Below the pieces are notes generated by a model, which saw only the letters and a list, made by a program, of their open reading frames with translations, did not search any database and had not been told where the DNA came from. Shown piece by piece: positions 3,157 through 11,052 of a stretch of 11,052 nucleotides of DNA. Location: IMG/VR virus record IMGVR_UViG_2667528155_000009. The stretch is one strand, 5' to 3'. A program made the position numbers and the translations under genes. How positions within the stretch are numbered: the first letter of the stretch is position 1; each line of letters begins with the position of its first letter. The stretch comes from a virus. Taxonomy: Duplodnaviria > Heunggongvirae > Uroviricota > Caudoviricetes.

Positions 3157-4074
3157 TCACCCCCTGAAACCCGGTGGAATGGTTGTGTCCGGTGGCGAAA
3201 TATCCTGAATCCTGGTCGGGCTGTCGCGGCCACGATTGCCTCCCCGGTCCTGGTCTTTTGCCAGCCAGCCGGTGATAAATTTCCTGATGCCTCGGGCGGT
3301 TTTTCGTCGTCGTCGTTCGCTGAGCAGCCATCCGCGCTGATTACGCAGTGCCTGCCGGACGTCGACCGCCGGATACAGCGTCTCAAACTCGACAACCATC
3401 GATTCGGTCACGGAAAATTCAGAACCGTCGTTGAGCGGAAGCCGAATAAACTCAGGGTCATCAGGCGGTGTTGATGGCACACCAGCGCTCAGAGGCCGAC
3501 GCTCAGGTCCGACATGGGCTGGTCCGGTACCATCGGGCAAACTCGCACCCTGTGACCCGAAATTTTCATCCAGTTGCGTGGGGCTGATTTTTTCAGCTCC
3601 GCGCAAGAGGTTTTGATCTTTTAGATCTGTTTCTTTATCTTTATCTGGATCTTTATTAGTTGCCTTTGTGTTGGGCTCCTGTTCAAACACAGAACCAACA
3701 CCTGTTGAACATGTGTTATTTTCGCTGGCAGATTGTGCTTCCTTCCTGTTCCTTCTTGACTGAACAGATGCTTTTCCTGCTGCAGACTTTTTCGCTAAGG
3801 TTTCCCTGACCGAATGAAGATCATCTTCAATACGCTTGTGAACCCACTCCGTGCCGTTATCAGTAAAAAATTCTCTCAACGACTCTTCTACGGCTCCCCA
3901 ACGCTCACTGCTAACCCGGGCAATCTTTGCCAGCCTGTTTTTCGGTATAGCCCTTCCGGTCTGCCAGTAATTGAACATCAGCAGTAAATAGGCCCCATGC
4001 TCCTCGGTTGAAAGATGCATTGTGTCAGCCAAGTAATCAGCGATATAAAGCTGCATGTATGGAAGTGCCGCCAT
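3157..4074 (-). CDS. DUF1376/YdaU-like phage replication protein with a long low-complexity linker and a C-terminal domain
   Basis: N-terminus MAALPYMQLYIADYLADTMHLSTEEHGAYLLLMFNYWQTG matches the YdaU/DUF1376 pattern from memory; position immediately upstream of the DnaC-like gene is typical of an O-like initiator. GAGG 4 nt upstream of the ATG. Confidence 0.7.
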   Translation of the reverse strand: MAALPYMQLYIADYLADTMHLSTEEHGAYLLLMFNYWQTGRAIPKNRLAKIARVSSERWGAVEESLREFFTDNGTEWVHKRIEDDLHSVRETLAKKSAAGKASVQSRRNRKEAQSASENNTCSTGVGSVFEQEPNTKATNKDPDKDKETDLKDQNLLRGAEKISPTQLDENFGSQGASLPDGTGPAHVGPERRPLSAGVPSTPPDDPEFIRLPLNDGSEFSVTESMVVEFETLYPAVDVRQALRNQRGWLLSERRRRKTARGIRKFITGWLAKDQDRGGNRGRDSPTRIQDISPPDTTIPPGFRG

Positions 4075-4124
4075 AACGCCTCGCTACGCTCTTTTCCGTT
4101 CGGTCTGAATACAAAAATTAATAC

Positions 4125-4141
4125 TCACTGGTCATGTCTCT
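4125..4141 (-). repeat. Boundary motif copy 2 (minus-strand reading AGAGACATGACCAGTGA)
   Basis: Identical 17-mer to 4714-4730; one mismatch to the plus-strand copy at 7842-7859. Confidence 0.7.
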
Positions 4142-4152
4142 CTGTTTGGTGC

Positions 4153-4212
4153 CGAACCTCCTGCTGGTGCTAGCCTGCTGATTCCCCAACCAACAGAACC
4201 ACAGGAGGTTCG
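4153..4212 (+). promoter_or_regulatory. Long-range stem sequestering the ribosome-binding site of the 70-aa gene
   Basis: CGAACCTCCTG at 4153-4163 is the perfect reverse complement of CAGGAGGTTCG at 4202-4212, which contains the GGAGG Shine-Dalgarno 6 nt before the ATG at 4215. Pairing can extend to within 2 nt of the start codon. Confidence 0.4.
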
Positions 4213-4214
4213 AC

Positions 4215-4427
4215 ATGTCAGATACAAAACTTAAAAATGGATTAACGCCTGAACAAATGGCACACGATATCGCTATGGTGCTCATCGGGAACCCATCCCA
4301 TGAATGGCTTTCGGATAATGCGACCAAAACTCGTAGCACTGAATTAGCAATGAGCGCTGTAGCAGAAGAAGTCATGAACATGGAAAAACATCTTGCTGCA
4401 GCTCTTCATCAGTACACGGAGAACTAA
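4215..4427 (+). CDS. Hypothetical small protein (70 aa), encoded antisense to the surrounding early operon
   Basis: Strong RBS (GGAGG, 6-nt spacer), ATG start, intrinsic terminator immediately downstream, and protein-like composition. The overlapping minus-strand ORF 4118-4381 has no RBS and an odd composition. Confidence 0.6.
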   Translation: MSDTKLKNGLTPEQMAHDIAMVLIGNPSHEWLSDNATKTRSTELAMSAVAEEVMNMEKHLAAALHQYTEN

Positions 4428-4438
4428 TCCGCATCAAA

Positions 4439-4463
4439 GGTCGCTGAGTTCGCGACCTTTTTT
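4439..4463 (+). terminator. Intrinsic terminator downstream of the 70-aa gene
   Basis: Stem GGTCGC/GCGACC with a 6-7 nt loop, followed by TTTTTT at 4458-4463. Confidence 0.5.
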
Positions 4464-4684
4464 CAGTCCACTCCAGTAGGCATCCCCAACCATTTTTTTA
4501 TATCGCTATAACTCAGCGTTATGGGCTGATTTTTGCCGGACTCTTCAACCGGTATGGTATGTTCCTCTTCAAATTTCTTTTCGAAGGTACGCATGTGCTC
4601 ACGCCAGGCATTTCGATCTTCGATCGCTTCTTCCCTCCGGTTCAGTCTGGCGTAATACCGTTCCTGCTCAGTCAACGTTTTCAT
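4463..4684 (-). CDS. Hypothetical small protein (73 aa, MKTLTEQERYYARLNRRE...)
   Basis: ATG at complement 4682-4684 with AGGAG and a 5-nt spacer; charged helical composition. The ORF-track extension to 4717 overlaps the upstream gene and lacks an RBS. Confidence 0.5.
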   Translation of the reverse strand: MKTLTEQERYYARLNRREEAIEDRNAWREHMRTFEKKFEEEHTIPVEESGKNQPITLSYSDIKKWLGMPTGVD

Positions 4685-4700
4685 TACTTCTCCTGCATGG

Positions 4701-5204
4701 TTACAACAGATGGTCACTGGTCATGTCTCTGATACTGCTGGCGGTAACTGCTTCGTAGCGTCTGTATTGCTTGTATGGCTTCATCACACTCCCGTTCAAA
4801 ATCCGTAACAGGCGCACCAAGAAGTACCGCATTTGCCACTGCGGTTTTTTTAAAAACTGTGTAAGCAGATACTCGATGCTATGCCCTGCCGTGACCTGCT
4901 TATGCAGCTCCGGCGCGTGTATCCGGATTGCTTCAAGAACTGCGGGGATTAGCGCTGAAAACTTTTCGCGGTGCTCTGTCGTTTCGAGTTTTCGCCATCG
5001 CTGAAAAATGTTTATACGATTCCGGCGCCATGCTTCGTAATCCACCGTTCCGTCATCACGTTCTATACGGTGGACAGCAATATCTGGTCTCACTTGCTGT
5101 TCCAGAAAGGCGCGGGTGATCAACTGTGTTGCACTTTCCTGACTCATTGCGGGTGTAGCCAGCCAGGATGACAGTGCTTTGTTGGCATCCTCAGGGGTGA
5201 TCAT
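4701..5204 (-). CDS. YdaT-like protein (167 aa), occupying the cII-equivalent position
   Basis: Immediately downstream of the Cro-like gene; segments LITRAFLEQ and SALIPAVLEAI resemble Rac YdaT as I recall it. GAGGTG 7 nt upstream of the ATG; the start overlaps the end of the Cro-like gene (translational coupling). Confidence 0.55.
   Translation of the reverse strand: MITPEDANKALSSWLATPAMSQESATQLITRAFLEQQVRPDIAVHRIERDDGTVDYEAWRRNRINIFQRWRKLETTEHREKFSALIPAVLEAIRIHAPELHKQVTAGHSIEYLLTQFLKKPQWQMRYFLVRLLRILNGSVMKPYKQYRRYEAVTASSIRDMTSDHLL
4714..4730 (-). repeat. Boundary motif copy 1 (encodes the YdaT-like C-terminus RDMTSDHLL)
   Basis: Plus-strand TCACTGGTCATGTCTCT; identical 17-mer at 4125-4141. 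Confidence 0.7.
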
Positions 5205-5568: not shown

Positions 5569-6003
5569 ATGAAAAAAAACAACGAATCAGCTCAATACGA
5601 GACTTCAGCCAGAAGGATCAAACAGGTCCTGTATGAATTAGGCTGGAACCAAAGTCGCCTGGCTAAAGAAATTGGGGTTTCAGCTCAGGCGGTACAACAA
5701 TGGGCAAAAGGTACTTCTCGACCGAATGGCCCTAATCTAACTCGACTTTCTGAAGTCACAAGCAAACCTGAAGCATGGTTTTTCAGTGATGTCAGCGGGT
5801 TATCTGAGAGTCATGCAGTACATTTACCAGAAAGTAATGGTTCAGACTTTCTCCCGCTTAGCGATGAAGAGATCAGACTGCTAACTGTCTTCAGGAAATT
5901 TCCTTCTGTAGAGAGTAAAAACATGCTGTTAGCGTTTGAGATGAGACTTCAGGAGATAAAAGAATACTATTCCAAATACGCTAATCCCAATAAAAACCGA
6001 TAG
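5569..6003 (+). CDS. DicA/RacR-like prophage repressor (HTH_XRE, 144 aa, no S24 peptidase domain)
   Basis: HTH NQSRLAKEIGVSAQAVQQWAKG; C-terminal LSDEEIRLLTVFRKFPSVESKNMLLAFEMRLQEIKEY parallels DicA as I recall it. Divergent from the Cro-like gene across the operator region. Confidence 0.8.
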   Translation: MKKNNESAQYETSARRIKQVLYELGWNQSRLAKEIGVSAQAVQQWAKGTSRPNGPNLTRLSEVTSKPEAWFFSDVSGLSESHAVHLPESNGSDFLPLSDEEIRLLTVFRKFPSVESKNMLLAFEMRLQEIKEYYSKYANPNKNR

Positions 6004-7914: not shown

Positions 7915-10900
7915 ATGAGTGATAAGAAAGAAGATTTCGCGCTGTACTGCCCTGTTAAAAATGAAGAGGCCAGGAAACGACTTGGAATAAAAGCAGGCTT
8001 TTTCTGGGCAACTGCAAAAAAATTATCTGTGGCTGTTTCCCGCTGTATTGCTGCTATGGACGATAAGGGGTATGACGAGGATGACTTTAAAAAACCTGTT
8101 CGCGTCAATTACCCCGTCGTTAACGACCTGCCTCCTGAAGGCGTGTTTGATACTGAATTCTGCAACCGTTACGAAAAAGGCGGTCAGGGTGGTATCACAA
8201 TGGTACTTATCCCCGGCGCTGTTCCCGCCGATCCAATGCACGGCGAAGTCGGCAGGGATATTACTGGCAGCGGCAACGCAGACGCAGACGCAGACGCAGG
8301 CACAGACGCAGATAATGCTACGGACAATACCGAAAGTACGCTCCTCCCCGCTTACGCTTATAACGTCAACGGCGAACTGATGTCGGAAGTGGAAAAGGAA
8401 ATGTCGCAGCCTGTTTCAGGACTAAGTCTGCCACTTCGTTTCCTGGCGCAATTTAATAACGACTGTCCACAACATCAGGTCACACCAGAGCGTTTACGGG
8501 AGTTAAACCTTACAGAGCAGGATCCCGACAGTCGTACCGGAACTATTTTACTCGCCATCCAGAACAGAAAGGAACAGCTCGAAAAACTGGACACAAAAAA
8601 CCTGCATCCTTTGGCGACGTACATTGAAAAAGTATTTCCCTGCGGAAAACGACCACAACTCAATGATGTCATTAATTTTATCGATGCCGTACTTAATACA
8701 GACTATGTCGATCGCGGACTGCTCGTTAAGGAATGGTGCGAAGGTCGTCGAGCCGCGTGCGTAGAGCATGTAACAGCACCAGAAACCAGGCGTGATAATA
8801 CTGTGTCAGCGCAGACGGAAACGAAGACTACTGTCACTGAACGTCCGCGTCGTAGCGAAAAAACAACGCACCGGACGATTAATTATGAAATTGGCTGTGG
8901 CTTATATGACGGCGAGCTGGATCTTCATAACCTGAGGGAACCGCTGGATTTTGCGAAACGCATTATGGCGAAAGACCGGGAAGACTGGAAAGTATGGTCA
9001 GACACAATCAACTGCATCCCTGGCATCCTGAATTATGACCGCCAGACCATTATCGAGATGGTACGAAAAGCCCCCACCCCGACTTATCACAGTGCTGCAC
9101 TGCGCCGCGAGTGGTGTGATTCTTATCTGCGAGCCTGGGGACGGCTCGATCCCGACTGGAGCCAGAGCGCCGCTGTCAAAACAGCAGAGTCACATGAAGA
9201 TGTCTGTGCTGATATCAGGAAGGCCGGAAAGCGCCTGCGTGAAATTGAATCAGGAGTTGGGATCAATGAAGAAAAACAGACGACACAGGGAGAACTGGCA
9301 GATGAACCGTCAGCGCCTGAATCAGTGGAACCGGCTTCAGCTGAACATCAGCAGAATACGCAGCCGCTGGATGCTGAGGCATCTGTAAACACCACTAAAA
9401 CGGAATTCGATGTATTTGCTCTAATGCAGAACTCATCTGTTTATGGCAGCAAAAACACACAGGAGACGACCAGCAATGTGCAGGTTCAGGACGCTGAAAA
9501 GGATGAAAAACAGGCTGGTACTGAAGTTCAGTCAGGCGAAAGCAGTCTGGGAACTGGTGAAGAGTCAGATACCAGACAGCAAGCCGATGTAAACCAGAAT
9601 ACGGATTCTGTCGCCCAAAATAGCGATTCTGTAAACCAAACTGAACCAGTTTTGGCACAAACCGAGCCAGAAGTGCAATCTGACGAACCGGCTGTTGTTT
9701 ACCCCGCTTACTTCGAACCAGGCCGCTATGAGGGTCTGCCGAACGAGGTTTATCACGCAGCCAACGGTATCAGCTCGACAATGGTAAAAGATGCGCGGGT
9801 GAGCCTGATGTACTTCAATGCGCGCCACGTAGAGAAAACCATTATCAAAGAACGCTCTCCTGTACTGGATATCGGTAACCTGGTGCATGCACTGGCGTTG
9901 CAGCCAGATCAACTCGATGAAGAATTCAGCATTGAACCCGTAATTCCGGAAGGTGCATTTACCACCACGGCAACGATCCGCGCGTTTATTGATGAGCACA
10001 ACGCCAGCCTGACAGCGATGCTGTCAGCCGACGACATCAAAGCACTGTTAGAAGAGTACAACGCCACCCTTCCTGCTCAGGTTCAGTTAGGTGGTTCCGT
10101 GGAGGAAACTGGCCAGAGCTATATGTCGCTGCCAGAAGAGTTCCAGCGTCTCGAAGCGGACAAGAAGCAGACCGCAGCGGCAATGAAAGCCTGCATCAAG
10201 GAATACAACACCACACTGCCTGCACAAGTGAAAATCAGCGGTAGCCGTGATGCGTTACTCGAGCAGTTAGCAATCATCAATCCTGACCTGGTGGCGCAGG
10301 AAGCGCAGAAGCCCGCGCAGTTGAAAGTGTCCGGCACCAAAGCGGATCTGATTCAGGCCGTGAAGTCTGTTAATCCTGATGCCATCTTCGCCGACGAACT
10401 GCTGGATGCGTGGCGCGAAAATACGCAAGGGAAAGTGCTGGTCACCCGCCAGCAACTGAGCACTGCACTGAGCATTCAGAAAGCCCTGCTCGAGCACCCT
10501 ACAGCGGGCAAGCTACTGACACACCCGAGCCGCGCCGTTGAGGTGAGCTACTTCGGTTTTGACGACGAAACCGGTCTGGAAGTCCGCGTTCGTCCCGACC
10601 TTGAGATCGATCTTGACGGGGTGCGCATCGGCGCCGACCTGAAAACCATCAGCATGTGGAACATTAAACAGGAAGGTCTGCGCGCCAAACTGCACCGCGA
10701 AATCATCGACCGTGACTACCACCTGAGTGCTGCCATGTATTGCGAGACCGCAGCGCTTGACCAGTTCTTCTGGATTTTCGTCAACAAAGACGAGAACTAC
10801 CACTGGATCGCCATCATCGAGGCATCCGCCGAACTTCTGGAACTGGGCATGCTGGAGTACCGCAAGGCAATGCGCGCCATCGCTACCGGCTTTGACACTG

Positions 10901-10977
10901 GCGAGTGGCCAGCGCCGATCACCTCCGGTAACTCCGATGAAATAGCCGACTACACCGACGAACTGAACGATTTCGAC
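7915..10977 (+). CDS. recE: RecE-like exodeoxyribonuclease VIII, 1021 codons with no stop; 3' end replaced by the chimeric junction
   Basis: C-terminal PD-(D/E)XK-like block RVRPDLEIDLDGVRIGADLKTIS; position at the distal end of the PL-like operon of a Rac-like immunity region; GAGG 10 nt upstream of the ATG. The reading frame runs into N's and 16S sequence after codon 1021 (DFD). Family call is from recall, not a search. Confidence 0.7.
8275..8310 (+). repeat. In-frame tandem hexanucleotide repeat (GACGCA-like, 6 units) encoding a D/A-rich low-complexity tract
   Basis: AACGCA GACGCA GACGCA GACGCA GGCACA GACGCA, translating to NADADADAGTDA. Confidence 0.7.
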
Positions 10978-11052
10978 NCNTGCCATCNGANGNGCCCAGA
11001 TGGGATTAGCTAGTAGGTGGGGTAACGGCTCACCTAGGCGACGATCCCTAGC
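10978..11052 (+). rRNA. 16S rRNA gene fragment (about 75 nt, enterobacterial, corresponding to roughly positions 220-290 of E. coli 16S); not native to this locus
   Basis: TGCCATCNGANGNGCCCAGATGGGATTAGCTAGTAGGTGGGGTAACGGCTCACCTAGGCGACGATCCCTAGC matches the conserved 16S region as I recall it. Abrupt junction with N's at 10978, 10980, 10988, 10991 and 10993, inside what would otherwise be the RecE-like coding frame. Confidence 0.8.

Follow-up and report, generated by a model that had tools for sequence, protein, structure and literature searches.

A predicted fold-back stem within a portable promoter-leader cassette ahead of a small antisense gene in a Rac-type prophage

A small antisense gene and the stem at its ribosome-binding site

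We analyzed a stretch of viral DNA of 11,052 nucleotides (nt) (IMG/VR record IMGVR_UViG_2667528155_000009; the whole stretch is referred to as the window), which represents the early region of a Rac-type lambdoid prophage. The analysis centered on a plus-strand coding sequence (CDS; 4215-4427) for an acidic protein of 70 amino acids (aa) and on the leader that precedes it, which comparative analyses showed to be a cassette that also stands before unrelated genes. The 70-aa open reading frame (ORF) lies on the plus strand, antisense to the early operon, and is flanked by an 83-aa gene and a DUF1376 replication gene. An initial reading made from the sequence alone (the sequence-only reading) had described an 11-nt complementarity between the ribosome-binding site (RBS) of the ORF and a segment upstream, and its coordinates are exact: 4153-4163 (CGAACCTCCTG) is the precise reverse complement of 4202-4212 (CAGGAGGTTCG). 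A repeat finder extended the two arms to 4150-4163 and 4202-4215, which gives 14 nt with one mismatch (93% complementary) and 38 nt between the arms. The upstream arm of this inverted repeat, arm A (TGCCGAACCTCCTG, 4150-4163, plus strand), is the anti-RBS segment and occupies the spacer between the -35 and -10 elements of a putative promoter. Arm B (CAGGAGGTTCGACATG, 4202-4217, plus strand) is the translation initiation region, with the Shine-Dalgarno (SD) sequence GGAGG at 4204-4208, 6 nt 5′ of the ATG at 4215-4217. A G·U pair carries the helix into the AU of the start codon, and SD, spacer and start codon are all covered.

Folded as RNA, positions 4146-4220 have a free energy of -26.8 kcal/mol (z = -2.64), a value reached by two of 200 shuffled sequences, and contain 11 perfect, GC-rich base pairs (bp) within a 14-bp stem. 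The longer segment 4120-4230, for which the sequence-only reading had proposed a comparison with shuffled controls, departs from them less (z = -1.9) than the shorter one does. A perfect 11-nt inverted repeat with a loop of up to 60 nt occurs in about 10% of shuffled windows, and the stem in one sequence alone is suggestive, not compelling. We judged it to be real because it is conserved, with 90.8% of cells paired across 55 distinct cassettes. An Rfam search of the window returned nothing relevant and no match to an RNA thermometer.

Comparison with its homologues showed the 70-aa ORF to be, by its pattern of codon substitutions, a genuine protein-coding gene under purifying selection. Across codons 5-25, ten codons differ from those of the homologue L001, all at third positions, and nine of these changes are synonymous and one is non-synonymous; the corresponding comparison with L003 gives ten synonymous and two non-synonymous changes. 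Homologues with 32-52% identity were found in five lineages, in every case antisense within a prophage early operon and followed by a terminator of their own. The family is tiny: it forms three clusters among 5.8 billion proteins, an exhaustive hidden Markov model search over 1.84 billion representatives recovered only four clusters, and one further cluster was met as cargo of the cassette. A protein-anchored scan of representative genomes found no homologue. We also considered a minus-strand ORF of 87 aa (4118-4381) as a real gene and rejected it, as it is not open in the homologues.

The intrinsic terminator of the gene (4439-4463, plus strand) was read from the sequence as GGTCGC (4439-4444), a 7-nt loop, GCGACC (4452-4457) and a run of six T (4458-4463); a consensus terminator scan did not list it. 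It ends at 4463, the exact end of the convergent 83-aa ORF. The homologues L001, L003, L178 and L184 carry a hairpin and T-run at the matching place, built from different stems. The homologues and the codon pattern thus bear out the sequence-only reading on this point: a plus-strand gene, self-contained and with a terminator of its own, lies inside the early operon.

That reading had also likened the layout to that of type I toxin mRNAs, and the properties of the gene product argue against the likeness. The protein is hydrophilic and acidic, with a grand average of hydropathy (GRAVY) of -0.44 and an isoelectric point (pI) of 5.1, and an AlphaFold model (predicted local distance difference test score 72) consists of three amphipathic helices (residues 12-25, 30-38 and 42-69) with no hydrophobic segment. 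No match was found in Pfam, NCBIfam or PHROG, tblastn against phages gave none either, and Foldseek against the Protein Data Bank returned nothing below E = 5. PADLOC gave only a weak match to PDC-M18A (E = 5e-4, 17.6 bits), a lead that we did not use as evidence. Our best guess, made from context, is that the protein is a lysogeny-expressed exclusion, defence or host-modulating factor.

The genes around the ORF are those of a Rac-type early region. The convergent 83-aa gene (4463-4717, minus strand), a small early-operon gene, probably has its true start at the ATG at 4686, which would shorten its product to 74 aa; it has no family match in Pfam, NCBIfam or PHROG. Divergent from the cassette, and next in the early operon, is the DUF1376 (YdaU-like) replication gene (3157-4074, minus strand; Pfam DUF1376, E = 3e-24), followed on the same strand by genes for a DnaC/IstB-like ATPase (3150-2410) and a DUF1627 protein (2461-1646). 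Also on the minus strand are a ydaT-like gene (5204-4701) and a ydaS/cro-like gene (5484-5191), while a racR/cI-like helix-turn-helix (HTH) gene (5569-6003) and the gene for a RecE-like exonuclease (7915-11013) are on the plus strand. The G+C content of the 70-aa CDS is 43%, compared with 50-56% for the ydaT-like, O-like and DnaC-like neighbours.

The boundary motif named in the sequence-only reading is real. The repeat finder identified a perfect 17-nt direct repeat, of which copy 1 (TCACTGGTCATGTCTCT, 4125-4141, plus strand) is immediately left of the cassette and copy 2 (4714-4730, plus strand) is inside the 3′ end of the ydaT-like gene. Read on the minus strand, copy 1 translates as ...RDMTSEY*, which resembles the end of the ydaT-like ORF, and it has the appearance of a remnant left by duplication of that ORF's 3′ end. 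Because the two copies bracket a 589-bp module that comprises the cassette, the 70-aa gene, its terminator and the minus-strand 83-aa gene, the arrangement suggests that the module was inserted through recombination.

The two ends of the window are of a different kind. Its last 72 nt (10981-11052), which directly adjoin or overlap the end of the recE-like ORF, show a 95.8% match to E. coli 16S rRNA, and bases 4-67 match E. coli polB at 93.8%. Because its ends match these host genes, the window looks like a chimeric assembly or a heavily deleted prophage remnant between host fragments, and the host is probably an Escherichia-like enterobacterium. Megablast of positions 3900-4700 gave no match in either phage GenBank records or complete E. 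coli genomes.

A leader cassette shared by unrelated genes

Because the region upstream of the 70-aa homologues was better conserved than their coding sequence, we ran searches with the leader only. A two-arm pattern search found the cassette before unrelated ORFs in Izhakiella, Salmonella and Klebsiella genomes. A search with arm A and GGAGG only returned 114 viral-contig stretches, nearly all of which continue as ...AGAACCnnAGGAGGTTCGACATG and then diverge into different genes; AGGAGGTTCGACATG recurs 5′ of unrelated genes even though nothing beyond arm A and GGAGG had been demanded. The converse search demanded arm B and AGAACC only and revealed the forms that an unconstrained arm A takes. 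Our alignment, A3, holds 55 distinct cassettes from prophages of E. coli, Salmonella, Klebsiella and Izhakiella and from a more distant genome of 3.65 Mb. Sequence comparison on this scale showed the leader (4146-4217) to be a portable promoter-leader-RBS cassette of about 68 nt. Its conservation starts abruptly at (T)TGGTG, and the left flanks are unrelated and belong to nine different gene clusters.

The genes that follow the cassette fall into at least 16 unrelated cargo clusters, with nine upstream and 14 downstream neighbour clusters. Among the cargo are the ~151-aa "ECs1072 family", a ~97-aa family, a BssS-like protein and the 70-aa family, and almost all of these proteins are uncharacterised. 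The leader is thus better described as a generic expression module than as the gate specific to the 70-aa gene that had first been proposed. Its setting is far more uniform than its cargo, since the cassette is nearly always antisense in the early-right operon. The divergent gene encodes a DUF1376 replication protein at 95 loci, Rha at 31 and CII (CP76) at 14, and at 122 of about 154 loci a gap of 10-19 nt lies between its start codon and the edge of the cassette; in the window, 74 nt separate the hairpin from the ATG of the replication gene. The cassette of the L178 lineage is within a pL-side operon. Rfam holds no family corresponding to the cassette, and the literature yielded nothing relevant on the motif and, on ECs1072, only a microarray listing. 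One conserved module of about 68 nt that serves many unrelated prophage genes at a fixed antisense slot therefore appears to be undescribed so far.

Of 5426 complete E. coli genomes, 569 carry the commonest variant of the cassette, which in O157:H7 fills exactly the slot between ydaT and the replication gene; in related prophages the slot carries different cargo or has different neighbours. The same variant is virtually absent from sequenced free phages. Its sole match in a GenBank phage (73 nt, 91.9%) is to PP818812.1, "Actinobacillus phage vB_Apl-pPE4", an unexpected host.

We next considered whether the pairing of the arms is selected. The columns of both arms in A3 show at least 90% conservation, in contrast to the drifting loop between them, and the 90.8% of paired cells refers to 14 pairs; the pairing at the RBS is therefore kept in homologous prophages, although variation in the arms is too low for statistics. 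The most informative case is the L178 lineage (P0006, from the 3.65-Mb genome), which was found purely via protein homology and not via the motif, and which is also present in two viral contigs. Its arms (GTCGAATCTCCT and AGGAGATTCGAC) differ from the consensus by a double change from C:G to T:A (pair 13-75), and an additional C to T change closes the C×A mismatch, which results in a perfect 13-bp helix around an unalignable loop. Scans that targeted either single L178 change recovered the double change alone. The C×A mismatch has been closed independently in two further ways, by GGTGTC in L127 and L130 and by TTCGGC in the L014 type. These comparisons suggest that arm complementarity is under selection, a conclusion that rests on few independent events. 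Wobble-type substitutions, with which we tried to decide which strand's RNA forms the long stem, were uninformative, as their counts are balanced.

In the L014-type cassettes (L014, L061, L062, L064 and relatives; eight loci), GGTTCGGCATAAAC replaces GGTTCGACATG, which removes the canonical ATG. The A to G substitution adds one C-G pair to the stem, and these cassettes may be decaying or re-purposed.

The same comparisons bear on the possibility that the complementarity has no function and is a relic, for example of an inverted RBS duplication, with the arms constrained separately as promoter spacer and as RBS. The arms hardly vary and covariation is minimal, several uncompensated disruptions are tolerated, and by chance a perfect 11-nt inverted repeat arises in one window out of ten, all as a relic would predict. 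Promoter spacers, however, are normally unconstrained in sequence, and conservation of at least 90% in arm A, across bacterial families and next to a drifting loop, is not what one of them would show. In L178, the two changes in arm A restore or extend its pairing with arm B, and the one C×A mismatch has been closed by two separate changes (GGTGTC in L127/L130, TTCGGC in the L014 type). We therefore regard a functionless relic as very improbable.

The arms could also be DNA half-sites for a phage or host regulator, with their complementarity reflecting the symmetry of an operator. They flank the -10 element and the start, with the second site at about +20 to +33, which is a common operator geometry; their conservation exceeds that of the usual promoter spacer, and operator symmetry would keep the L178 arms matched as well. 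Some loci, moreover, have a palindrome resembling the YdaT operator about 20 bp upstream of the cassette (PMC9986795). Against this explanation, one arm consists of SD, spacer and AUG and the other is its exact complement, for which RNA pairing is the simpler account. The centre-to-centre spacing of the arms ranges from 45 to 57 bp among variants, and identical cassettes occur with different cI repressors and with differing cro, cII or ydaT neighbours. The arm A variants CCTTCC and CTTCCT pair only via G·U or a bulge, which is a property of RNA. Taken together, an operator seems quite improbable, and an immunity repressor acting on the arms is unlikely because identical cassette and cargo occur with two cI types.

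A clean case of mosaic exchange at the immunity region is provided by L004 when set beside L005 and L006. These loci share the cassette, the 70-aa gene, the 83-aa gene and ydaT but have two immunity repressors, one of the HTH_3 type (144 aa) and one of the Phage_CI_repr type (125 aa).

The published consensus of the YdaT operator is TTGATT-N6-AATCAA (PMC9986795). L024, L038 and L056 carry TTGATTtatgtcAATCAA, a perfect match to it, about 20-40 nt upstream of the cassette, which hints that in some prophages YdaT may control the cassette promoter or the divergent gene.

The probable cassette promoter and the RNAs predicted to contain the stem

The left edge of the cassette is formed by a -35-like hexamer, TTGGTG (4146-4151, plus strand), and promoter scoring places the -35 element here in most variants. 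An extended -10 element, TGcTAGCCT (4168-4176, plus strand; hexamer 4171-4176), lies inside the loop of the stem. In A3 the T, the A and the final CT of the -10 hexamer are nearly invariant while its middle varies (TATAAT/TAATCT, TATCCT, TATTCT, TAGCCT and others), and TAnnCT is located 17-19 bp 3′ of (T)TGGTG. The variants of the window type (class II) all read TGnTAG(C/T)(C/T)T, an extended -10, and the in-loop site is the top-scoring promoter position in about 43 of 78 distinct regions. We rejected two other candidate elements. A sigma-E promoter (CGAACCT-N16-TGTGA) was dismissed on inspection of A3, where its -10 part is not conserved among variants, and the spacing of CTGT-N12/13-ACAG in the loop is wrong for a LexA box.

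Published start-site data exist for a homologous cassette, that of the ECs1072-family gene EDL933_RS32100 (1256691-1257146, minus strand) of E. coli O157:H7 EDL933. Cappable-seq detected a minus-strand start at 1257177 in six of eight uninduced conditions (Table S6; PMC10469882), and in each of these six, where its relative read scores are 19-52, this position is the main start of gene 32100 (Table S7; PMC10469882). It is found 8 nt past TATAAT, on the downstream side of arm A, and 31 nt separate it from the ATG. A second start, 1257310, is the main one in stationary minimal medium (PMC10469882); it corresponds to position 22311 of L183, 99 nt upstream of the cassette, where it lies within the 5′ part of the replication gene and antisense to it. 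ECs1072 was also among the significantly regulated genes in a microarray time course of strain Sakai. Position 1257177 corresponds to column 41 of A3, and by homology we predict that transcription in the window starts near 4183 (plus strand, about ±2 nt), 7 nt after TAGCCT. The firing of a homologous cassette in uninduced EDL933 cultures fits the accessory gene expressed in lysogeny that the sequence-only reading had envisaged, and the unit in the window would, by homology, likewise be transcribed in the lysogen.

Because the main start of the homologous cassette lies in the loop, downstream of arm A, the native mRNA would lack arm A. This bears directly on the model first proposed, in which the native mRNA starts upstream of 4150, carries both arms and stays translationally silent until the stem is opened by processing, a trans-acting RNA or unfolding. 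The strength of the stem (-26.8 kcal/mol, z = -2.64), its conservation and the one compensatory change are in keeping with such a gated mRNA, as are the weak in-loop -10 of the window, the lack of a -10 there in L178, and the upstream start in EDL933, which yields some RNA and is the main start in stationary minimal medium. By contrast, the homologous main start is in the loop in six of eight conditions, TAnnCT is conserved in the loop, and the sequence upstream of the cassette is wholly unconserved, so that a shared upstream promoter cannot exist. Nor does a gate of this kind sit well with a hydrophilic and acidic product, with a leader that serves at least 16 unrelated cargo families, or with the lack of an Rfam match. 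We consider a gated native mRNA improbable. The likeness to a thermosensor fares no better, given a GC-rich stem of -26.8 kcal/mol whose arm A would be upstream of the start.

RNA from the upstream EDL933 start, 1257310, does include arm A and could be the kind of read-through RNA that the stem could silence. We computed accessibility as the mean unpaired probability of the 15-nt segment from SD to AUG in 59 distinct cassettes, with read-through RNA starting 60 nt upstream. Mean accessibility was 0.49 in the native RNA, 0.18 in the read-through RNA and 0.32 in read-through RNA with arm A shuffled; for the window type, the corresponding values were 0.58, 0.14 and 0.26-0.31. The native leader, from 4183, is barely structured (-7.7 kcal/mol, z = +0.7).

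What structure the native leader has is a local 5-bp hairpin, GAACC-ACAGGA-GGTTC (4196-4211, plus strand), which appears in the minimum free energy structure of 4183-4260 and holds in its loop an AGGA that overlaps the SD. The hairpin (A3 columns 62-78) is paired in 98.2% of cells in the 55 cassettes, all six one-sided changes give G·U pairs, and its AGAACC box is nearly invariant. A GGA in a short hairpin loop over the SD is the classic layout of a CsrA-binding site, and by analogy the local hairpin could add post-transcriptional control, for example by CsrA. The terminator scan flagged this hairpin on the minus strand.

A function on that other strand is a further alternative. The hairpin might work in the minus-strand early (pR-type) transcript, just 5′ of the RBS of the next early gene, as a processing, stabilising or pausing element, or the cassette promoter might, in the manner of the convergent lambda oop RNA, damp leaky early transcription into the replication genes; the cargo would be secondary in both versions. 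The distance of 10-19 nt between the cassette edge and the divergent start codon in 122 of about 154 loci is suggestive here, the helix is equally possible in the complementary RNA, the homologous promoter is active in uninduced lysogens, and the location between a cII/ydaT-like gene and a replication gene matches that of lambda oop. The cassette, however, travels with the start codon of its cargo while its neighbours vary (DUF1376, Rha, CII and others, and a pL-side operon in L178). The cargo is under purifying selection, its own terminators halt transcription before the convergent gene, and the distance from the hairpin to the ATG of the replication gene is 74 nt in the window. Wobble pairs of the long stem favour neither strand, and those of the local hairpin favour the plus strand. 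A primary role in the minus-strand transcript or in damping is hardly likely in our view.

We give a modest preference, as somewhat more probable than its negation, to the reading that 4146-4463 is an autonomous moron expressed in the lysogen, located antisense in the early-right operon and insulated from read-through transcription by the stem. The moron would consist of the promoter-leader-RBS cassette of about 68 nt, the 70-aa gene as its cargo and the intrinsic terminator. The sigma-70 promoter of the cassette (TTGGTG, spacer, TGcTAGCCT), starting near 4183, would produce a native 5′ untranslated region of about 32 nt that is CA-rich and weakly structured, with a strong and largely open GGAGG RBS. 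Arm A, in the promoter spacer and 5′ of the start, would be missing from this mRNA and confined to RNAs initiated farther upstream, such as those from antisense promoters within the replication gene. In such read-through RNA, a helix of about 14 bp (-27 kcal/mol) would bury the RBS. Because the stem straddles the promoter, it would act on read-through RNA only, blocking translation of the cargo from it, and would be no gate on the native message.

Several points weigh against this reading. The -10 of the window, TAGCCT with a 19-bp spacer, is rescued only by the upstream TG, and its score of 6.4 is about the median of the best site in a random 225-nt window, so that the argument from homology carries most of the weight. 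That argument draws on a start mapped in one cassette, EDL933 of the TATAAT class, and the class II start follows by homology only. The stem is retained in L178, where the homologous position lacks a -10. In the window, a promoter scan found no plus-strand promoter-like site upstream of the cassette, and the silencing of read-through RNA is a thermodynamic prediction. As for the pairing itself, the stem is weakened without compensation in L021 (TTCAAC), L060 (GGCTCG) and L157 (CCAAACC), L129 and L136 have lost the anti-SD part of arm A, again uncompensated, and a single independent compensatory event was found. Motif-anchored searches fix one arm and are thus blind to double changes.

Relation to known systems and significance

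The closest parallels to the proposed mechanism come from transposons. Fold-back inhibition of read-through transcripts was reportedly described for IS10/Tn10 by Davis, Simons and Kleckner in 1985, and for IS50/Tn5 by Krebs and Reznikoff in 1986 and Schulz and Reznikoff in 1991. In IS10 and IS50, sequence 5′ of the element's own start complements the SD and AUG, so that only transcripts from outside fold and become untranslatable while the native message stays open. The cassette resembles them in that arm A is, by homology, 5′ of the native start, arm B comprises SD and AUG, and the start is in the loop; the RBS is also predicted to be open in the native RNA and closed in read-through RNA. It differs from them in that it belongs to a prophage moron instead of a transposase gene, that the module is reused by many unrelated genes and that its silencing effect is a prediction. 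IS200 protects itself against impinging transcription with an SD-sequestering stem and a terminator (PMC4513863).

The unit in the window also shares the main features of lambdoid morons. It has its own terminator and, as judged by alignment, its own promoter, it is inserted between genes that are adjacent in related phages, and it has a lower G+C content and direct repeats at its boundaries; the start of the homologous EDL933 cassette was detected in six of eight uninduced cultures, and the unit may likewise be transcribed in the lysogen. Morons of this kind (lambda bor and lom, and those of HK97 and HK022) are said to have been described by Juhala et al. and Hendrix et al. in 2000. Unlike the classical ones, which are mostly in the late region, the unit in the window is antisense in the early replication operon. 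Nor are morons known to have a single, highly conserved promoter-leader-RBS cassette in common, as at least 16 cargo families do here. The ECs1072 locus of the O157:H7 prophages Sp4 and CP-933M has the same cassette, slot between ydaT and the replication gene, and antisense orientation. It differs from the window in its unrelated cargo of ~151 aa, its lack of a convergent 83-aa gene and its perfect TATAAT -10.

Other systems match in part. The lambda oop RNA, transcribed from pO, is 77 nt long, encodes no protein and overlaps the 3′ end of cII. Like oop, the unit in the window is antisense between a cII-type and a replication initiator gene and has its own promoter and intrinsic terminator; unlike oop, it encodes a conserved protein, and its terminator stops transcription before the convergent gene. 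With type I toxin mRNAs (hok, tisB, zorO) and RNA thermometers it has in common a long-range helix over SD and AUG, and a small prophage ORF. It differs from type I toxins in that the upstream arm is, by homology, outside the native transcript and the protein is hydrophilic; no antisense small RNA (sRNA) partner was evident and Rfam gave no hit in the window, where no dedicated sRNA search was made. Compared with RNA thermometers (ROSE, fourU), which have imperfect, weak stems, its helix of -27 kcal/mol is far more stable. The prophage sRNA HnrS, which we also considered, is encoded in the late region and is unrelated (PMC13502914).

A moron combined with transposon-style fold-back insulation is thus the best-supported description of the unit. 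A broader and more doubtful proposal, which we put forward tentatively, is that the ~68-nt module marks a hypervariable accessory slot, expressed in the lysogen, in Rac/Qin-type prophages of Enterobacterales, whose cargo, the 70-aa protein and 15 or more further families, would be new superinfection-exclusion, anti-phage or host-modulating factors. The anti-RBS arm would then restrict translation of the cargo to RNA from the cassette's own constitutive promoter. Such a slot would be akin to the defence hotspots of P2/P4-like elements.

Should our preferred reading hold, the gated, toxin-like view of the gene is replaced by that of a constitutive but insulated one, and the signature (T)TGGTGYCGAACCT...TAnnCT...AGAACCnnAGGAGGTTCGACATG would mark prophage genes that are switched on in the lysogen. 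This class would comprise the ECs1072 family, which about 10% of complete E. coli genomes contain, together with 15 or more further families that are uncharacterised, and would offer a direct handle on genes for lysogenic conversion, exclusion or defence. It would also mean that a reusable phage promoter-RBS module has incorporated the fold-back trick by which transposons counter outside transcription; such a promoter, with an anti-RBS in its spacer, would be a compact natural insulator part. The preferred reading would further bear on how antisense transcription in prophage early regions is read.

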